Of a DNA stretch of 64,000 nt, positions 5,867-14,055 are shown in pieces. The DNA comes from Escherichia coli (GTDB taxonomy: Bacteria; Pseudomonadota; Gammaproteobacteria; Enterobacterales; Enterobacteriaceae). The position numbers and the translations under genes are program-made. The stretch is from NCBI RefSeq assembly GCF_001677475.2, contig NZ_CP015229.1; one strand, written 5' to 3'. The notes beneath the pieces are model-generated. The model saw only the letters and a list, made by a program, of their open reading frames with translations. It was not told where the DNA came from and searched no databases. The stretch's first letter is position 1, and each line of letters opens with the position of its first letter.

Positions 5867-8800
5867 CTACCATTTCACCGTCATCGTCAAAAACCCTGTA
5901 GTCTGGGCAAAATCATCACTCCCTTTCTGCCACGCCATGCTACCACGCAGCGAAACTCGCTGACTGATATTGCCCGTTACTCCAACTTTTATTTCACCCC
6001 GTTGCTTCACCGCATCGTCACTGATAGTGCTGCCATCCTCTTCAATTTCCGTCGCATGGGGATCGTGATAATAATTCAGATCTAACGTTGGTGTGACATG
6101 AACAGCGGTACGCCATTCGCTGTGTAAACCCAGCCGCGTCTGAATATCATCACCCTGCGATTGTGACACGCGTGCATGGTTAGCGGCGGTAAAGTCATCC
6201 TGCAGCACGCCCTGATAAATCACCTGCGCCTGCGGTTCAATCACCACACCACGCTCCGGTAACCACTGATACCCCGCCTCCAGCGAGGCGATAATCCCCG
6301 ACGAGTGGTAATGATCTGTGCCATCGTCTTGTTCGGAAACATCATTGTTAAACCACGCGTATTGCAGCCAGCTATCCAGCCAGGCCCCCTGCTTCTGATT
6401 ACCGTGCTGAAACCAGCTTGAGGTCAGCCCAACGGCAAAACCGTGGTTCTGGTTATCGGCGCGAGTTCCAGTCATATTCGAGCGGCTGTCGCCCTGGTTA
6501 TCGCTGTAGCCACCTACAATCCCAAGCATCCACTCGCCATCATCGCCCCAGCGCCCCCTAAACAGGTCACCGCTAAGCTGCACCGTAGAAGTGTCTTCAT
6601 GCTGAGCCAGTTGCCTTGCCGCCGTGTAATGATAACGTCCGCCGATAACACGTAAATTCAGCGTCTGACCATCGCCACCAGCGTGATCGCGTCGCTCCAT
6701 CACAAACGCCTGATTTGCCGCCCGCAGGTTATTGAGATAACCGCCAACTTTGGCATTCAGCACCGGCTGGTAAGCGGGGATTGGATCGGGTGTTGGGTCA
6801 GGATCGGGTGTTGGGTCCGGGTCTGGATCAGGTGGCGATGGCGGCGTTACTTCTTGCGATCGCAGATACCAGTCGTTGTTATCTTCCACCAGCGTGTAGT
6901 CATACGCTCCCATGTTGACGTAGCCACTGCCTGCCAGACTGAACTGCGCATTGTTTTGAAACTGCGTGGGATCAGCTGCGAAATCAACCACTTTAATGCC
7001 TGTAGATGTCGGCTCACCAATCCCTGTAATGGGGTTAACCACAACCGTGGTATTGCCAGCAGTATTACCGTTCAACACCAACTGGTCGCTTGCTGAGTCA
7101 TCGCCGTTTAATTCGCTGTCGAGCAGTAACGTACCGCCGCCGGTGTAATCACCGTTTACCGTCAGCGTATCGCCAACGACGCCATTTTGCAGGCTAACCG
7201 CACCGGATGTATTGGTCAGATCACCATTAACCGTCACATCGGCAAGATAGGTCAGGTTGTCAGTTTCAAGGTTGGTATTAAGCTCACCTGTCAACGTCAC
7301 GCCATCGGTGGCATTCACCAGCGTCCCATCGCCGTTAAACAGTGAGGCATTAAGGGCGACAGAAGTATCCTGCCCGGTCAGGCGCAAAACCGTACCATCG
7401 CTGATGTCGATAGTGCCGCTGGAAGTAGCATCAATTGACTGAATATCCTGATCCGAGCCAGTAACGAACGTTGCCCCATCACCGACCCACAGTGACGAAG
7501 CATAAGGAAGAATATCCGCAACATCACCTTTCAGGGTGCCTTCTTCGACACGTACCGCCGACTGCGTTGTACCGCTGGCGGTCAGCTCCAGCGTGCCTGC
7601 ACCGGTTTTCGTCAGTGTGGTTCCCGCGTCCTGGTGCTGTCCACTGCTGTCGGCCATCAATGCGCCCCACTGCGTGTCGACCCCCGCATCAACTGCCACT
7701 TCACCGTCGGCGCGCATTTCAATATCACGCCCATGCTCAGTCGTTGTAGAGCGAGTATCGACATTGGCAGTAATCTCCATCACGCTTTCTTGTTGATTAT
7801 CGGTAAAGATAACCTGGCGGTTGTAATGGGTATCTCCAAGCTGCGAGTTGTCGCTCACCATCAGCGTACCGGAGGCGATTTGCGTTGTGCCGAGGTATTG
7901 ATTGTCATTTGCCAGGCTGACCTGCCCGTCACCCGCATCGATCACCACGTAGACGCCATCTTTCCCGTCGCCGCCGATATGCATATCGTTTCCGCCTGCA
8001 AGATCCACCACATCCTGACTGCCGATAACCGTACCGCCGTTGCCGCTGACTTCAAGGCCATCGTTGTATGATGTGCCGCTCTGCCAGGTGGAGAAATCAG
8101 AGAGATCGAGCACACCGCCGTTTAACACAATCGACTGCGGATCGTCCTGGAGAGCGGCAAGATCTGCCGCGTCGCCTTCCAGTGAAAGCACCGCACCATC
8201 ATCAACGACTATATCGCCGGTTAGCGCCATCGACTGCGCCCCCGCCAGCACATAGCTGCCGTTTTGCGCAATGGTGAGCTGACCAGCACCTTTGATGGTG
8301 CCAGCAAAACTGCCTTGATTAACAGTAACATTGCCACCAGCATCGATATTTAAAGTGCCATTCTGAAAGCCCGTCAATGAGTGCACAAAGGTTTGTTGGG
8401 TGGAGCCAACATTTAGCTCTGCCTGATTCTGGTACTTATCAATACTCCCTATCGTCAGACCGTAGCAGTCTTGCGGATCGTCCTGGCAATGCGTATCGCC
8501 GACATTCATCAGGGAGTTGCTGCGGCCCAGGGTAACTTCACCGTTTTCAATCTGCATCTCACCAGTAAAGTCATTGTTATCTGCATTAAGTACCAGATCG
8601 CCGGAACCTGTTTTGGTGATTAACCCGGTACCTGCAATAGAGTCAACAGCTCCGTCATTCTCTGTATTGCCGATAACCAGCGTTTTTCCGTCGGCAATAT
8701 CAAAGGTAACTTCACTTAAGCCGAGATACATAAAGCCACCCGCCGCAGTAGAAGGACCATCTCCATAGCCTGCTGCGCTATTGTTCTCATCCACTAACAC

Positions 8801-9607
8801 GCCGCCGTTCTGGCTGTAGCTGTCATCAACAGAAATATCAATAAGATAGGGAGCCGTCGCGCTATTGGTATATATCGCCCCGCCATAACCTTCAGCAGTG
8901 TTATTTGTAAAGGCGGTGTTATTTATTATCGTATAACCTGAAGGATGCGTGATATCGCTATTATTATCTGTGACATCAATTGCGCCGCCATCGCCATCAC
9001 TGTAACTTGTTGATGTATATGCCTGGTTATTGTTAAAAATATCATCACTTAAATAGATATCATTATTGATGGTATAAATTGCACCACCTTTACCGTCATT
9101 AGCGATGTTATTGCTAAACACGGCGTTAGTGACACGTAAATCGACGGTACCAGTATCATTAGTACCAGAAGAATAGATTGCGCCACCATAACCGCCTGCG
9201 ACGTTACCAGAAAAAATAACATCAGTAAGATTCAGCGTTGAGTTTTCTTTAGCAAATATTGCCCCACCGTTATTATATTCTCCTGTAACGGTGTTATTGG
9301 CAAACAGAGTCATTCCTGTGTTATTTTCTGGTAATAGTGAAAATTCCGCTCCCTGTTGCAAAAATACGGCTCCTCCGCTGGCATTATTGGTCATATCAGA
9401 AAAAACCAGCCATTGCCCATCGGCGACACTCCAGTCCTGCGTAATGCCTGAAAGGCTTTGCCTGCTGGCGTGACAACTCGCTTTGATATCATATCCCTGG
9501 CATAAATCAATGGCCGCCGCGACACCGTTAGCAGAGAAAAGAGATGCAATCATTGACGGGAGTAGAGATAAATACTCCTTGCGTAGAAAGATAATCCGCA
9601 TATTCAT
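5867..9607 (-). CDS. yfaL: Autotransporter (type Va) adhesin: GGAIY-repeat passenger, Pro/Asp/Thr-rich linker, C-terminal beta-barrel
   Basis: 1246-aa ORF with signal peptide, repeated G(Y/K/D)GGAI(Y/F) motifs, PDPDPTPDP linker, and beta-barrel domain ending in ...TVKW. Confidence 0.9.
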   Translation of the reverse strand: MNMRIIFLRKEYLSLLPSMIASLFSANGVAAAIDLCQGYDIKASCHASRQSLSGITQDWSVADGQWLVFSDMTNNASGGAVFLQQGAEFSLLPENNTGMTLFANNTVTGEYNNGGAIFAKENSTLNLTDVIFSGNVAGGYGGAIYSSGTNDTGTVDLRVTNAVFSNNIANDGKGGAIYTINNDIYLSDDIFNNNQAYTSTSYSDGDGGAIDVTDNNSDITHPSGYTIINNTAFTNNTAEGYGGAIYTNSATAPYLIDISVDDSYSQNGGVLVDENNSAAGYGDGPSTAAGGFMYLGLSEVTFDIADGKTLVIGNTENDGAVDSIAGTGLITKTGSGDLVLNADNNDFTGEMQIENGEVTLGRSNSLMNVGDTHCQDDPQDCYGLTIGSIDKYQNQAELNVGSTQQTFVHSLTGFQNGTLNIDAGGNVTVNQGSFAGTIKGAGQLTIAQNGSYVLAGAQSMALTGDIVVDDGAVLSLEGDAADLAALQDDPQSIVLNGGVLDLSDFSTWQSGTSYNDGLEVSGNGGTVIGSQDVVDLAGGNDMHIGGDGKDGVYVVIDAGDGQVSLANDNQYLGTTQIASGTLMVSDNSQLGDTHYNRQVIFTDNQQESVMEITANVDTRSTTTEHGRDIEMRADGEVAVDAGVDTQWGALMADSSGQHQDAGTTLTKTGAGTLELTASGTTQSAVRVEEGTLKGDVADILPYASSLWVGDGATFVTGSDQDIQSIDATSSGTIDISDGTVLRLTGQDTSVALNASLFNGDGTLVNATDGVTLTGELNTNLETDNLTYLADVTVNGDLTNTSGAVSLQNGVVGDTLTVNGDYTGGGTLLLDSELNGDDSASDQLVLNGNTAGNTTVVVNPITGIGEPTSTGIKVVDFAADPTQFQNNAQFSLAGSGYVNMGAYDYTLVEDNNDWYLRSQEVTPPSPPDPDPDPTPDPDPTPDPIPAYQPVLNAKVGGYLNNLRAANQAFVMERRDHAGGDGQTLNLRVIGGRYHYTAARQLAQHEDTSTVQLSGDLFRGRWGDDGEWMLGIVGGYSDNQGDSRSNMTGTRADNQNHGFAVGLTSSWFQHGNQKQGAWLDSWLQYAWFNNDVSEQDDGTDHYHSSGIIASLEAGYQWLPERGVVIEPQAQVIYQGVLQDDFTAANHARVSQSQGDDIQTRLGLHSEWRTAVHVTPTLDLNYYHDPHATEIEEDGSTISDDAVKQRGEIKVGVTGNISQRVSLRGSMAWQKGSDDFAQTTGFLTMTVKW
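6783..6835. repeat. Imperfect 18-bp tandem repeat inside yfaL (encodes the PDPDPTPDPDPTPDP linker)
   Basis: ggatcgggtgttgggtca followed by ggatcgggtgttgggtcc and a degenerate third copy. Confidence 0.6.
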
Positions 9608-10134
9608 CTAACCATCATTTTATATAAGACGACGTATTTAATCGCATTATACGATATGGGTTATCTTTCTTTTGTAAATTGTTCAACCCGATGCAATGGC
9701 TATTTTGTTATTATTTGATGAATAGTATCAGTGCGTCATAATTCAAGTTAATAACCTTAAGGGATATCAGTTATATTTAAACTAAATTAAAGTAATGAAT
9801 AATTTTCTTATAATATAAGGTAAATTAACAAAATGGCTTCGCATTTAACAATAACCGAATAGAAAACAACCATTTCAGCATCAACAATCGCTTACATTCG
9901 CTTATATATTGACCACAACTGATACATCAGATTATGTGATGACTCGTGCTTAGATCAATTTTTGCAATGATTAGCAAAAAGATTAATAAACCATCTATAT
10001 CAATTTATCTAACCTATTCTGCCGTTCAAGAAATCGCCGAACAGTTATTTTTAACAAATTTTTCTCTTCCCATTGACTTTCCCGGACACCTTGTCTGACC
10101 TAAGGTGCGCGAAAGCCACTTTTTCCTTCCTGAG

Positions 10135-10155
10135 TTATCCACAAAGTTATGCACT
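10135..10155 (+). promoter_or_regulatory. Two adjacent DnaA-box-like sites upstream of nrdA
   Basis: TTATCCACA (10135-10143, matches TTATNCACA) and TTATGCACT (10147-10155, 8/9 match); DnaA control of nrdAB is established. Confidence 0.55.
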
Positions 10156-10173
10156 TGCAAGAGGGCCATTTTC

Positions 10174-10220
10174 ACACTATCTTGCAGTGAATCCCAAACA
10201 TACCCCCTATATATAGTGTT
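10174..10220 (+). promoter_or_regulatory. Two NrdR-box-like palindromes in the nrdA promoter/5' leader
   Basis: acactatcttgcagtg (10174-10189) and ccctatatatagtgtt (10205-10220), about three helical turns apart, upstream of the nrdA start at 10297. Confidence 0.5.
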
Positions 10221-10296
10221 CTAAGCAGCTTCCCGTACTACAGGTAGTCTGCATGAAACTATTGCGGAAAGAATTCCAAAAACAGGTACGACATAC

Positions 10297-12582
10297 ATGA
10301 ATCAGAATCTGCTGGTGACAAAGCGCGACGGTAGCACAGAGCGCATCAATCTCGACAAAATCCATCGCGTTCTGGATTGGGCGGCAGAAGGACTGCATAA
10401 CGTTTCGATTTCCCAGGTCGAGCTGCGCTCCCACATTCAGTTTTATGACGGTATCAAGACCTCTGACATCCACGAAACCATTATCAAGGCTGCCGCAGAC
10501 CTGATCTCCCGTGATGCGCCGGATTATCAGTATCTCGCCGCGCGCCTGGCGATCTTCCACCTGCGTAAAAAAGCCTACGGCCAGTTTGAGCCGCCTGCGC
10601 TGTACGACCACGTGGTGAAAATGGTCGAGATGGGCAAATACGATAATCATCTGCTGGAAGACTACACGGAAGAAGAGTTCAAGCAGATGGACACGTTTAT
10701 CGATCACGACCGTGATATGACCTTCTCTTATGCTGCCGTTAAGCAGCTGGAAGGCAAATATCTGGTACAGAACCGCGTGACCGGCGAAATCTACGAAAGC
10801 GCCCAGTTCCTTTATATTCTGGTTGCCGCGTGCCTGTTCTCGAACTACCCGCGTGAAACGCGCCTGCAATATGTGAAGCGTTTTTACGACGCGGTTTCCA
10901 CATTTAAAATTTCGCTGCCGACGCCAATCATGTCCGGCGTGCGTACCCCGACTCGTCAGTTCAGCTCCTGCGTACTGATCGAGTGCGGCGACAGCCTGGA
11001 TTCCATCAACGCCACCTCCAGCGCGATTGTGAAATATGTTTCCCAGCGTGCCGGGATCGGCATCAACGCCGGGCGTATTCGTGCGCTGGGTAGCCCGATT
11101 CGCGGTGGCGAAGCGTTCCATACCGGCTGCATTCCGTTCTACAAACATTTCCAGACAGCGGTGAAATCCTGCTCTCAGGGCGGCGTGCGCGGCGGTGCGG
11201 CAACGCTGTTCTACCCAATGTGGCATCTGGAAGTGGAAAGCCTGCTGGTGTTGAAAAACAACCGTGGTGTGGAAGGCAACCGCGTGCGCCATATGGACTA
11301 CGGGGTACAGATCAACAAACTGATGTATACCCGCCTGCTGAAAGGTGAAGATATCACTCTGTTCAGCCCGTCCGACGTACCGGGGCTGTACGACGCGTTC
11401 TTCGCCGATCAGGAAGAGTTTGAACGTCTGTATACCAAATATGAGAAAGACGACAGCATCCGTAAGCAGCGTGTGAAAGCCGTTGAGCTGTTCTCGCTGA
11501 TGATGCAGGAACGTGCGTCTACCGGTCGTATCTATATTCAGAACGTTGACCACTGCAATACCCATAGCCCGTTTGATCCGGCCATCGCGCCAGTGCGCCA
11601 GTCAAACCTGTGCCTGGAGATAGCCCTGCCGACCAAACCGCTGAACGACGTCAACGACGAGAACGGTGAAATCGCGCTGTGTACGCTGTCTGCTTTCAAC
11701 CTGGGCGCAATTAATAGCCTGGATGAACTGGAAGAGCTGGCAATTCTGGCGGTTCGTGCACTTGACGCGCTGCTGGATTATCAGGATTACCCGATCCCGG
11801 CCGCCAAACGTGGAGCGATGGGTCGTCGTACGCTGGGTATTGGTGTGATCAACTTCGCTTACTACCTGGCGAAGCATGGTAAACGCTACTCCGACGGCAG
11901 CGCCAACAACCTGACGCATAAAACCTTCGAAGCGATTCAGTATTACCTGCTGAAAGCGTCTAATGAGCTGGCGAAAGAGCAAGGCGCGTGCCCGTGGTTT
12001 AACGAAACCACTTACGCGAAAGGGATCCTGCCGATCGATACTTATAAGAAAGATCTGGATGCCATCGCTAATGAGCCGCTGCATTACGACTGGGAAGCTC
12101 TGCGTGAGTCAATCAAAACGCACGGCCTGCGTAACTCCACGCTTTCTGCTCTGATGCCCTCCGAGACTTCTTCGCAGATCTCTAACGCCACTAACGGTAT
12201 TGAACCGCCGCGCGGTTACGTCAGCATCAAAGCGTCGAAAGACGGTATTCTGCGCCAGGTGGTGCCGGATTACGAGCATCTGCACGACGCCTATGAGCTG
12301 CTGTGGGAAATGCCGGGTAACGATGGCTACCTGCAACTGGTGGGTATCATGCAGAAATTTATCGATCAGTCGATCTCTGCCAACACCAACTACGATCCGT
12401 CACGCTTCCCGTCAGGAAAAGTGCCGATGCAGCAGTTGCTGAAAGACCTGCTCACCGCCTACAAATTCGGGGTCAAAACGCTGTATTATCAGAACACCCG
12501 TGACGGTGCTGAAGACGCACAAGACGATCTGGTGCCGTCAATCCAGGATGATGGCTGCGAAAGCGGCGCATGTAAGATCTGA
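10297..12582 (+). CDS. nrdA: Ribonucleoside-diphosphate reductase 1 alpha subunit (class Ia)
   Basis: 761-aa ORF; N-terminal ATP-cone (MNQNLLVTKRDGSTERINLDKIHRVL), catalytic core, C-terminal Cys pair. Confidence 0.97.
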   Translation: MNQNLLVTKRDGSTERINLDKIHRVLDWAAEGLHNVSISQVELRSHIQFYDGIKTSDIHETIIKAAADLISRDAPDYQYLAARLAIFHLRKKAYGQFEPPALYDHVVKMVEMGKYDNHLLEDYTEEEFKQMDTFIDHDRDMTFSYAAVKQLEGKYLVQNRVTGEIYESAQFLYILVAACLFSNYPRETRLQYVKRFYDAVSTFKISLPTPIMSGVRTPTRQFSSCVLIECGDSLDSINATSSAIVKYVSQRAGIGINAGRIRALGSPIRGGEAFHTGCIPFYKHFQTAVKSCSQGGVRGGAATLFYPMWHLEVESLLVLKNNRGVEGNRVRHMDYGVQINKLMYTRLLKGEDITLFSPSDVPGLYDAFFADQEEFERLYTKYEKDDSIRKQRVKAVELFSLMMQERASTGRIYIQNVDHCNTHSPFDPAIAPVRQSNLCLEIALPTKPLNDVNDENGEIALCTLSAFNLGAINSLDELEELAILAVRALDALLDYQDYPIPAAKRGAMGRRTLGIGVINFAYYLAKHGKRYSDGSANNLTHKTFEAIQYYLLKASNELAKEQGACPWFNETTYAKGILPIDTYKKDLDAIANEPLHYDWEALRESIKTHGLRNSTLSALMPSETSSQISNATNGIEPPRGYVSIKASKDGILRQVVPDYEHLHDAYELLWEMPGNDGYLQLVGIMQKFIDQSISANTNYDPSRFPSGKVPMQQLLKDLLTAYKFGVKTLYYQNTRDGAEDAQDDLVPSIQDDGCESGACKI

Positions 12583-12608
12583 TAATCCCCCAGCCTTTGC
12601 ACCAAACC

Positions 12609-12648
12609 GTCCCCTCTCCCCTTGCGGGAGAGGGTTAGGGTGAGGGGT
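12609..12648. repeat. GC-rich palindromic element between nrdA and nrdB
   Basis: cccctctcccCTTGCgggagaggg followed by ttagggtgagggg; stem cctctccc/gggagagg. Confidence 0.4.
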
Positions 12649-12670
12649 AATAAAACCACAGGACACATTC

Positions 12671-13801
12671 ATGGCATATACCACCTTTTCACAGACGAAA
12701 AATGATCAGCTCAAAGAACCGATGTTCTTTGGTCAGCCGGTCAACGTGGCTCGCTACGATCAGCAAAAATATGACATCTTCGAAAAGCTGATCGAAAAGC
12801 AGCTCTCTTTCTTCTGGCGTCCGGAAGAAGTTGACGTTTCTCGTGACCGTATCGATTACCAGGCATTGCCTGAACACGAAAAACACATCTTTATCAGCAA
12901 CCTGAAATATCAGACGCTGCTGGACTCAATTCAGGGTCGCAGCCCAAACGTGGCACTGCTGCCGCTGATCTCGATCCCGGAACTGGAGACCTGGGTCGAA
13001 ACCTGGGCGTTCTCAGAAACGATTCATTCCCGTTCCTATACTCATATCATTCGTAATATCGTTAACGATCCGTCTGTTGTCTTTGACGATATCGTCACCA
13101 ACGAGCAGATCCAGAAACGTGCGGAAGGGATCTCCAGCTATTACGATGAACTGATCGAAATGACCAGCTACTGGCATCTGCTGGGCGAAGGCACCCACAC
13201 CGTTAACGGTAAAACCGTAACCGTTAGCCTGCGCGAGCTGAAGAAAAAACTCTATCTCTGCCTGATGAGCGTTAACGCGCTGGAAGCGATCCGCTTCTAC
13301 GTTAGCTTCGCTTGCTCCTTTGCGTTCGCCGAACGCGAACTGATGGAAGGTAACGCCAAAATTATTCGCCTGATTGCCCGCGACGAAGCCCTGCACCTGA
13401 CCGGTACTCAGCATATGCTGAATCTGCTGCGCAGCGGCGCGGATGATCCGGAGATGGCGGAAATTGCCGAAGAATGTAAGCAGGAGTGCTATGACCTGTT
13501 TGTCCAGGCGGCACAGCAAGAGAAAGACTGGGCGGATTATCTGTTCCGTGACGGTTCGATGATTGGTCTGAATAAAGATATTCTCTGCCAGTACGTTGAA
13601 TACATCACCAATATCCGCATGCAGGCAGTCGGTTTGGATCTGCCGTTCCAGACGCGCTCCAACCCGATCCCGTGGATCAACACCTGGTTGGTGTCTGATA
13701 ACGTGCAGGTTGCTCCGCAGGAAGTGGAAGTCAGTTCTTATCTGGTCGGGCAGATTGACGCGGAAGTGGACACCGACGATTTGAGTAACTTCCAGCTCTG
13801 A
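12671..13801 (+). CDS. nrdB: Ribonucleoside-diphosphate reductase 1 beta subunit
   Basis: 376-aa ORF with diiron-tyrosyl radical protein features; immediately downstream of nrdA. Confidence 0.97.
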
Positions 13802-14055
13802 TGGCCCGCGTTACCCTGCGCATCACTGGCACACAACTGCTGTGCCAGGATGAACACCCTTCCCTTCTGGCGGCGCTGGAATCCCACAATGTGGCGGTTG
13901 AGTACCAGTGCCGCGAAGGTTATTGCGGCTCCTGTCGCACCCGACTGGTCGCAGGTCAGGTGGACTGGATTGCCGAACCGTTAGCCTTTATTCAGCCGGG
14001 GGAAATTTTGCCCTGTTGTTGCCGGGCAAAAGGCGATATTGAAATCGAGATGTGA
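13801..14055 (+). CDS. yfaE: 2Fe-2S ferredoxin involved in NrdB cofactor maintenance
   Basis: 84-aa ORF with Cys cluster CREGYCGSC...CCC; start overlaps the nrdB stop. Confidence 0.88.
   Translation: MARVTLRITGTQLLCQDEHPSLLAALESHNVAVEYQCREGYCGSCRTRLVAGQVDWIAEPLAFIQPGEILPCCCRAKGDIEIEM

Follow-up and report, generated by a model that had tools for sequence, protein, structure and literature searches.

The 689-bp spacer upstream of nrdA in the analysed stretch of Escherichia coli DNA (64,000 nucleotides, hereafter the window) contains the nrdAB control region, which is real, intact and already known. We regard it as highly probable that the sites found here make up the established control elements of this operon, namely a DnaA double box at the −35 element and three helically phased NrdR boxes, which we call box 0, box 1 and box 2. 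That the sites are present, how they score, their registers and spacing, and their conservation were observed in the sequences analysed; DnaA occupancy, NrdR affinities and nucleotide dependence are carried over from the literature. A phased array of three NrdR boxes is the most likely reading of the region, and within it the exact start site and the role of box 0 are the parts that we infer. Judging from its sequence, box 0 is probably a conserved weak auxiliary NrdR box, because 77 species retain the pair that it forms with box 1, its position 6 is never A, and a full box 2 is almost confined to the Escherichia clade.

The gene order of the window is that of the E. coli K-12 annotation (yfaL–ypaB–nrdA–nrdB–yfaE), with the following features around the control region:

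5867–9607, minus strand: yfaL, from the list of open reading frames.
9608–10296: spacer between yfaL and nrdA, 689 bp.
10026–10169, minus strand: ypaB, a 47-aa open reading frame annotated in K-12 and in other RefSeq genomes, antisense over both DnaA boxes and the −35 element.
10297–12582, plus strand: nrdA, 761 aa, first gene of the controlled operon (10297–14055).
12671–13801, plus strand: nrdB, an open reading frame of the nrdA operon.
13801–14055, plus strand: yfaE, an open reading frame of the nrdA operon.

Matches covering at least 80% of the spacer were present in 5,423 of 5,426 complete E. coli genomes, with a best identity of 98.5%, and the 126-nt core of the control region (10130–10255) was present at an identity of at least 95% in 5,425 of the 5,426. 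In some complete E. coli genomes the core is identical, although the whole spacer is at most 98.5% identical. Over positions 10121–10296 the window differs from K-12 at a single position, 10166 (C in the window, T in K-12), which lies in the spacer between the −35 and −10 hexamers, and the statement of an initial annotation of this DNA that the regulatory region is intact is therefore borne out. The ypaB frame is likewise intact, and the SNP at 10166 accounts for a change in its second codon (T2A relative to K-12). The nrdR and dnaA genes both lie outside the 64-kb window; nrdR is located far away from nrdAB on the E. coli chromosome.

Several further observations concern the locus in other E. 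coli records. NZ_OL790696.1, a 4.8-Mb E. coli replicon held in a plasmid database, is 100% identical to the window over 10040–10300. The spacer between nrdA and nrdB (12583–12670) measures 88 bp in the window versus 233 bp in K-12, and it contains a G/C-rich inverted repeat, CCCCTCTCCCCTTGCGGGAGAGGGTTAGGGTGAGGGG, in place of the REP-type repeats and the tiny yoaM open reading frame of K-12. Thirteen nucleotides of the nrdA leader, CGGAAAGAATTCC (window 10265–10277, in the interval between box 2 and the ribosome-binding site), are missing from some E. coli, for example from BEN2908, an APEC strain, and from about 550 records that fall in the 80–90% identity band; yfaL is an annotated pseudogene in BEN2908.

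The promoter and leader elements of the region are as follows (Type I denotes one of two arrangements among Enterobacterales that are described below):

10155–10160, plus strand: −35 hexamer TTGCAA of nrdAp, read from the sequence and kept as cacTTGCAA in all Type I species.
10178–10183, plus strand: −10 hexamer TATCTT, separated from the −35 hexamer by 17 bp and invariant in 30 Type I species.
10187–10190, plus strand: approximate transcription start, predicted from the hexamer geometry and the published placement of box 0 over the start site.
10284–10287, plus strand: likely Shine–Dalgarno sequence AGGT, 9 nt before the ATG, proposed on reading the leader.
10082–10097: proposed HusR (YnfL) site CCGGACACCTTGTCTG, in the ypaB/nrdA gSELEX peak (PMC12844172), positioned here by eye.
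10117–10132: proposed HusR (YnfL) site CACTTTTTCCTTCCTG, from Table 1 of PMC12844172, directly upstream of DnaA box A and overlapping the 5′ end of the interval that was annotated initially (10121–10296).

As judged from these hexamers, nrdAp would be a weak sigma-70 promoter that reads into nrdA. The arrangement TTGCAA–17 bp–TATCTT agrees with the sigma-70 consensus at 8 of 12 positions, and because this falls under the threshold of 9 of 12 used in our consensus promoter scan, nrdAp was not reported by the scan; the matches returned for the spacer were confined to its AT-rich upstream part. In that upstream half (9700–9960) eight sigma-70-like matches were found on both strands, versus 3.9 expected, and this stretch would correspond to the part where the nrd literature puts Fis sites and an AT-rich cell-cycle element. 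A start at 10187–10190 would give a leader of about 107–110 nt, and Tuggle and Fuchs reportedly described a 110-nt nrdA leader in 1986. The string 'acaggta' ahead of the ATG is kept in nearly all of the 79 species compared below. A search of positions 9600–10400 against Rfam returned no RNA family, the one hit being a chance snoRNA match (E = 0.16), and folding of the leader RNA revealed no unusual structure (z = +1.08). An RNA element as the explanation of box 2 was rejected on these two results. Published work places box 0 over the −10 element and the transcription start site (PMC12176259; bioRxiv 10.64898/2026.05.11.724285), and a 2026 gSELEX study names ypaB as a HusR target (PMC12844172).

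Two co-oriented DnaA boxes adjoin this promoter on its upstream side:

10135–10143, plus strand: DnaA box A, TTATCCACA, a perfect consensus box, whose 14.4 bits are the highest single-box score in the window.
10147–10155, plus strand: DnaA box B, TTATGCACT, two mismatches, 6.9 bits; it shares its final base with the start of the −35 hexamer.

Two DnaA-box strings lying 3 bp apart upstream of nrdA had been noted in the initial annotation, and TTATCCACA and TTATGCACT each occur once in the window, at these positions and with AAG (10144–10146) between them. A position weight matrix (PWM) was built from 24 boxes of 12 ChIP-seq double-box sites other than nrdA and applied to both strands of the window. 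The pair scored 21.3 bits and ranked first, with the runner-up at 14.0 bits, and of 200 random sequences of 64 kb only 2 scored as high. Single 9-mers resembling TTATCCACA (at most one mismatch) were not enriched in the window (9 found versus 13 expected). Because the pair abuts the −35 element it anchors the position of the promoter, as had been claimed. Box B is invariant among E. coli K-12, the B2-like strain BEN2908, E. albertii and Pseudocitrobacter.

The window pair is identical to the K-12 nrdA site gTTATCCACAaagTTATGCACTt, which is occupied by DnaA in ChIP-seq, with a peak at K-12 position 2344805 that corresponds approximately to window position 10237 (PMC11317965). DnaA sites used in vivo are pairs of boxes 2–3 bp apart, both of which are required (PMC11317965), and nrdA is among the 16 DnaA ChIP-seq regions of Stringer, Fitzgerald and Wade (2024). 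The window pair resembles the sites of that regulon in that its two 9-mers point the same way, are separated by 3 bp and include a perfect TTATCCACA. Its order, a strong box followed by a weak one, is shared with rpoH and dnaA, whereas most sites of the regulon have the weak box first. A review credits nrdAB with three DnaA boxes, of which two are nucleotide-independent and one is specific for DnaA-ATP; according to it, the operon is activated by DnaA-ADP or low DnaA-ATP and repressed by high DnaA-ATP. The third, DnaA-ATP-specific box was not located in the control region, and reviews give no coordinates for it. We considered TTCCTTCCT (10123–10131) as a candidate and rejected it at about −3.6 bits, a value obtained by subtracting the 14.4 bits of box A from the double-box score of 10.8 for 10123–10143; we treat it as a degenerate relic. 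It lies 3 bp before box A, at the position that a weak upstream DnaA box occupies in other Type I species. The strong DnaA box is 10 bp nearer to the −35 element in the Escherichia clade than in other Type I species. On the most likely reading of the region, a DnaA dimer would bind cooperatively to the two co-oriented boxes (10135–10155), which touch the −35 element; following the literature, DnaA-ADP or low DnaA-ATP would then aid RNA polymerase, and DnaA-ATP at high levels would spread across the promoter and repress it. Control of this kind would tie dNTP synthesis to the initiation of replication.

The NrdR box is a 16-mer with key positions C4, A6, A8, T9, T11 and G13 (bioRxiv 10.64898/2026.05.11.724285). 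We ranked 63,985 positions of the window with a PWM whose only input was the four nrdHIEF and nrdDG boxes of E. coli (sequences from PMC12176259), and three boxes were located 47–125 nt upstream of the nrdA ATG:

10172–10187: NrdR box 0, TCACACTATCTTGCAG, the classical 'box 1', overlapping the −10 element and the transcription start site; 7.7 bits, rank 13; five of six key positions (C at position 6, not A).
10204–10219: NrdR box 1, CCCCTATATATAGTGT; 17.0 bits, rank 1; six of six key positions.
10235–10250: NrdR box 2, GTACTACAGGTAGTCT; 11.4 bits, rank 2; five of six key positions (G at position 9), with a central AG.

Box 0 and box 1 are joined by a 16-bp linker and box 1 and box 2 by a 15-bp linker, so that the starts are 32 and 31 bp apart. 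The two best-scoring NrdR pairs in the window were 10204 with 10235 (28.3 bits) and 10172 with 10204 (24.7 bits), followed by a pair of 12.5 bits, and neither of the two leading scores was reached in 100 random windows. Taken singly, boxes 0 and 2 score below the chance maximum for random 64-kb sequence (mean maximum 13.0 bits), and what sets them apart is solely their phasing with box 1.

The initial annotation had proposed as NrdR-like boxes a pair of palindromic strings about three helical turns apart, ACACTATCTTGCAGTG (10174–10189) and CCCTATATATAGTGTT (10205–10220). Both strings are present, each once in the window, and their starts are 31 bp apart, or about three helical turns; their registers are off by +2 and +1 nt. 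As written they score −3.5 bits (rank 4427) and −21.6 bits (rank 62370), and in the corrected registers, which are those of box 0 and box 1, they score 7.7 and 17.0 bits. No NrdR box in the window is stronger than the second of the two, whereas the first, taken together with it, is bound very weakly (Kd above 6 µM), and the strong partner, the downstream box 2, had been missed. The fit to replication-coupled and dNTP-feedback control that had been drawn from these sites stands for the DnaA part and is half right for the NrdR part. The pair of box 0 and box 1 as an annotation is said to go back to Rodionov and Gelfand (2005) and Torrents (2007), and it is now historical because work of 2025–26 redefines the operator as boxes 1 and 2.

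In that work, E. coli NrdR in the presence of ATP and dATP bound box 0 with box 1 at a Kd above 6000 nM versus about 113 nM for box 1 with box 2 (PMC12176259), and the mapped high-affinity operator is for this reason placed partly elsewhere than the initial pair. Rozman Grinberg et al. (2025) named the upstream classical box 'box 0' and identified boxes 1 and 2 as the true site; in an earlier gel-shift study, mutation of box 0 had no effect and mutation of box 1 abolished NrdR binding (PMC12176259). A 2026 preprint by authors of the 2025 study states that NrdR requires two boxes and that E. coli NrdR does not recognise box 0, attributes this to the C at position 6, and reports a 10-fold higher affinity when this base is changed (C6A) (bioRxiv 10.64898/2026.05.11.724285). 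In Salmonella, mutation of either NrdR1 (box 0) or NrdR2 (box 1) raised nrdAB expression; the NrdR2 mutant alone reached the level of a ΔnrdR strain, and the NrdR1 mutant was partly derepressed (PMC2892513). A 2025 regulon study still uses the classical NrdR pairs.

The nrdA loci of 80 Enterobacterales species, of which 79 were usable, were then compared. In each species the anchor was the single best NrdR match upstream of nrdA, with no pair demanded; anchors that required a pair, which is circular, gave the same conservation result. The best match is a box with six of six key positions in 77 of the 79 species. Of the 79 species, 77 have a second box with at least five of six key positions at a distance of 31–32 bp on the upstream side, corresponding to a linker of 15–16 bp, versus 0.3% at control offsets; 31–32 bp downstream of the anchor such a box was found in only four of 79. 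At position 6 the upstream box has C in 70 species, T in eight and G in one, and never A, whereas the anchor has A there in 78 of 79. A full box 2 was present only in E. coli, E. albertii, Pseudocitrobacter and Rouxiella. Its left half alone (aCACTAc) occurs in 19 of 31 Type I species, scored as at least 4.4 bits and compared with a background of 2%. Members of the Escherichia clade share the core of box 2, CACTAC..GT[AT]G, and a linker length of 15 bp, whereas the sequence of the linker diverges.

Two arrangements of DnaA and NrdR sites were distinguished, both located about 60–220 nt upstream of the nrdA ATG. Type I (31 species, including Escherichia, Pseudocitrobacter, Yersinia, Serratia, Hafnia, Edwardsiella, Dickeya, Rahnella, Xenorhabdus and others) has TTATCCACA upstream of cacTTGCAA and box 0 over TATCTT. 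Type II (44 species, including Citrobacter, Enterobacter, Raoultella, Kluyvera, Erwinia, Pantoea, Pectobacterium and others) is without the upstream DnaA box and has TTATCCACAgagTTAGTCACA and an inverted TGTGGATAA directly after box 1; a three-box DnaA cluster abuts the downstream side of this NrdR box. A conserved TTG...TAGAAT lies just upstream of box 0 in Type II and may represent a different, upstream promoter; its −35 and −10 elements were assigned by eye only, because the consensus promoter scan of one Type II and one Serratia locus gave nothing useful. Type II regions resemble the window in the box 0–box 1 pair with its 16-bp linker, in the leader end 'acggacaggta' and in the co-occurrence of DnaA and NrdR sites, and they differ from it in having neither box 2 nor the upstream DnaA box. 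The distribution of the two types is patchy, with Escherichia and Pseudocitrobacter set against Citrobacter and Enterobacter, and Pectobacterium against Dickeya and Brenneria.

These data bear on how NrdR uses the three boxes. In the arrangement that we favour, box 1 (10204–10219) would be the anchor of the NrdR operator, and box 2 (10235–10250), which lies in the transcribed leader, would be its high-affinity partner in E. coli. Box 0 (10172–10187) would be a weak third box in helical phase, placed over the −10 element and the start. As an auxiliary contact it could allow NrdR bound at box 1 to occlude the promoter, which is the least certain step of the scheme. The classical model instead makes box 0 and box 1 (at the −10 element and at +15 to +30) the whole operator, acting by occlusion of RNA polymerase, with box 2 irrelevant. 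In its favour are the presence of this pair, with its 16-bp linker, in 77 of 79 Enterobacterales species, its place as second-best pair in the window (24.7 bits), the increase of nrdAB expression in both Salmonella mutants (PMC2892513) and the retention of the classical pairs in the 2025 regulon study. The measured affinities, above 6000 nM for box 0 with box 1 and 113 nM for box 1 with box 2, nevertheless point the other way (PMC12176259), as does the failure of E. coli NrdR to recognise box 0 (bioRxiv 10.64898/2026.05.11.724285), and box 2 ranks second in the window and is kept in the Escherichia clade despite divergence of its flanks. We consider this model unlikely. It is also plausible, although less likely than the favoured arrangement, that NrdR acts through the leader boxes 1 and 2 only and that box 0 reflects constraint on the −10, discriminator and start-site sequence. 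The in vitro affinities agree with such an operator (PMC12176259; bioRxiv 10.64898/2026.05.11.724285), box 0 alone scores at chance level, and in Type I, the window included, every base of CACTATCTTG is invariant, non-key NrdR positions among them, so that promoter constraint alone could explain the conservation of box 0 there. Type II argues against it: in that group box 0 lies downstream of the −10 element assigned by eye (TAGAAT), and yet its key positions are invariant and the linker remains 15–16 bp. Among 43 distinct Type II sequences, C4, A8, T9, T11 and G13 of box 0 do not vary and positions 10 and 12 do, a pattern that fits an NrdR box but would not be expected if the sequence served as a −10 element. 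The partial derepression of the Salmonella box 0 mutant (PMC2892513) also speaks against an operator of boxes 1 and 2 only. A full box 2, moreover, is present in only four of 79 Enterobacterales species; since it is absent from most and NrdR needs two boxes, box 1 would be without a partner in those species.

A further reading keeps all three boxes and gives them a history, in which box 0 would be a maintained, sub-optimal ancestral partner of box 1, box 2 would have been gained in the Escherichia clade, and the DnaA boxes would have shifted position. We hold it tentatively, at somewhat less than even chances. Under it, box 2 would nucleate high-affinity binding in the leader and box 0 would provide an occlusion of the −10 element and start that is graded by dATP, and the DnaA boxes would have moved between a site upstream of the −35 element (Type I) and one just downstream of box 1 (Type II). 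If this reading is true, the two DnaA-box positions would imply that relatives as close as Citrobacter and Enterobacter have a different interplay of DnaA and NrdR. That the motifs match by chance within AT-rich intergenic sequence is, by comparison with any of these, a negligible explanation. The count of single DnaA-like 9-mers (9 found versus 13 expected) and the unremarkable scores of boxes 0 and 2 taken singly are what chance would give, but the double DnaA box exceeded 198 of 200 random windows and the NrdR pairs exceeded all 100, the sites are kept across 77 species, and the identical K-12 sequence is bound experimentally (PMC12176259; PMC11317965). The phased array of three boxes, with box 0 as a probable auxiliary element, is the reading that we retain.

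The nearest known system is nrdAp of E. coli K-12 (NC_000913.3, approximately 2,344,690–2,344,864), in which the DnaA pair, the −35 and −10 hexamers, boxes 0, 1 and 2 and the leader are identical to those of the window. The E. coli nrdHIEF and nrdDG operators resemble that of nrdAB: their boxes are 16 bp long, partly palindromic and marked by C4...G13, the linker measures 15 bp, and they are bound by an NrdR tetramer in a dATP- and ATP-dependent manner with a Kd similar to that for nrdAB (PMC12176259). The nrdAB region differs from them in having three phased boxes and not two, a central AG in box 2 and C at position 6 of box 0, and in that its high-affinity pair lies wholly downstream of the start site. 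Phages P1 and P7 carry a partial copy of the region that is 83–95% identical to window 10044–10173 and keeps both DnaA boxes and the −35 element. The homology ends exactly at the start of box 0, and the copy is without NrdR boxes and without a downstream ribonucleotide reductase (RNR) gene; it adjoins hot/upfN–upfO, hot being a homologue of the theta subunit of Pol III. It also includes the region of the proposed HusR sites. M95666.1 and AF234173.1 annotate this copy as 'nrdA-like promoter' and 'dnaA box'. E. coli genomes contain plasmid-borne promoter copies of the P1/P7 type at about 235 places, and 317 PLSDB records also carry such copies; we considered whether the approximately 235 plasmid matches represent a new mobile copy of the promoter and rejected this, as they correspond to the annotated P1/P7 'nrdA-like promoter'.

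For the annotation of the window, these results fix the nrdAB promoter and indicate that replication-coupled control by DnaA and dNTP-feedback control by NrdR are intact; the control region adds nothing new to the biology of E. coli. For nrdAB, the NrdR pair given in textbooks has been superseded as the accepted operator, and box 1 and box 2 should be annotated in its place, whether by eye or automatically. The conservation of the box 0–box 1 pair in 77 of 79 species, with position 6 of box 0 never A, fits awkwardly with the non-recognition of box 0 in vitro. Together, the conservation of box 0 and the placement of the DnaA boxes offer a modest lead for specialists in RNR and NrdR.
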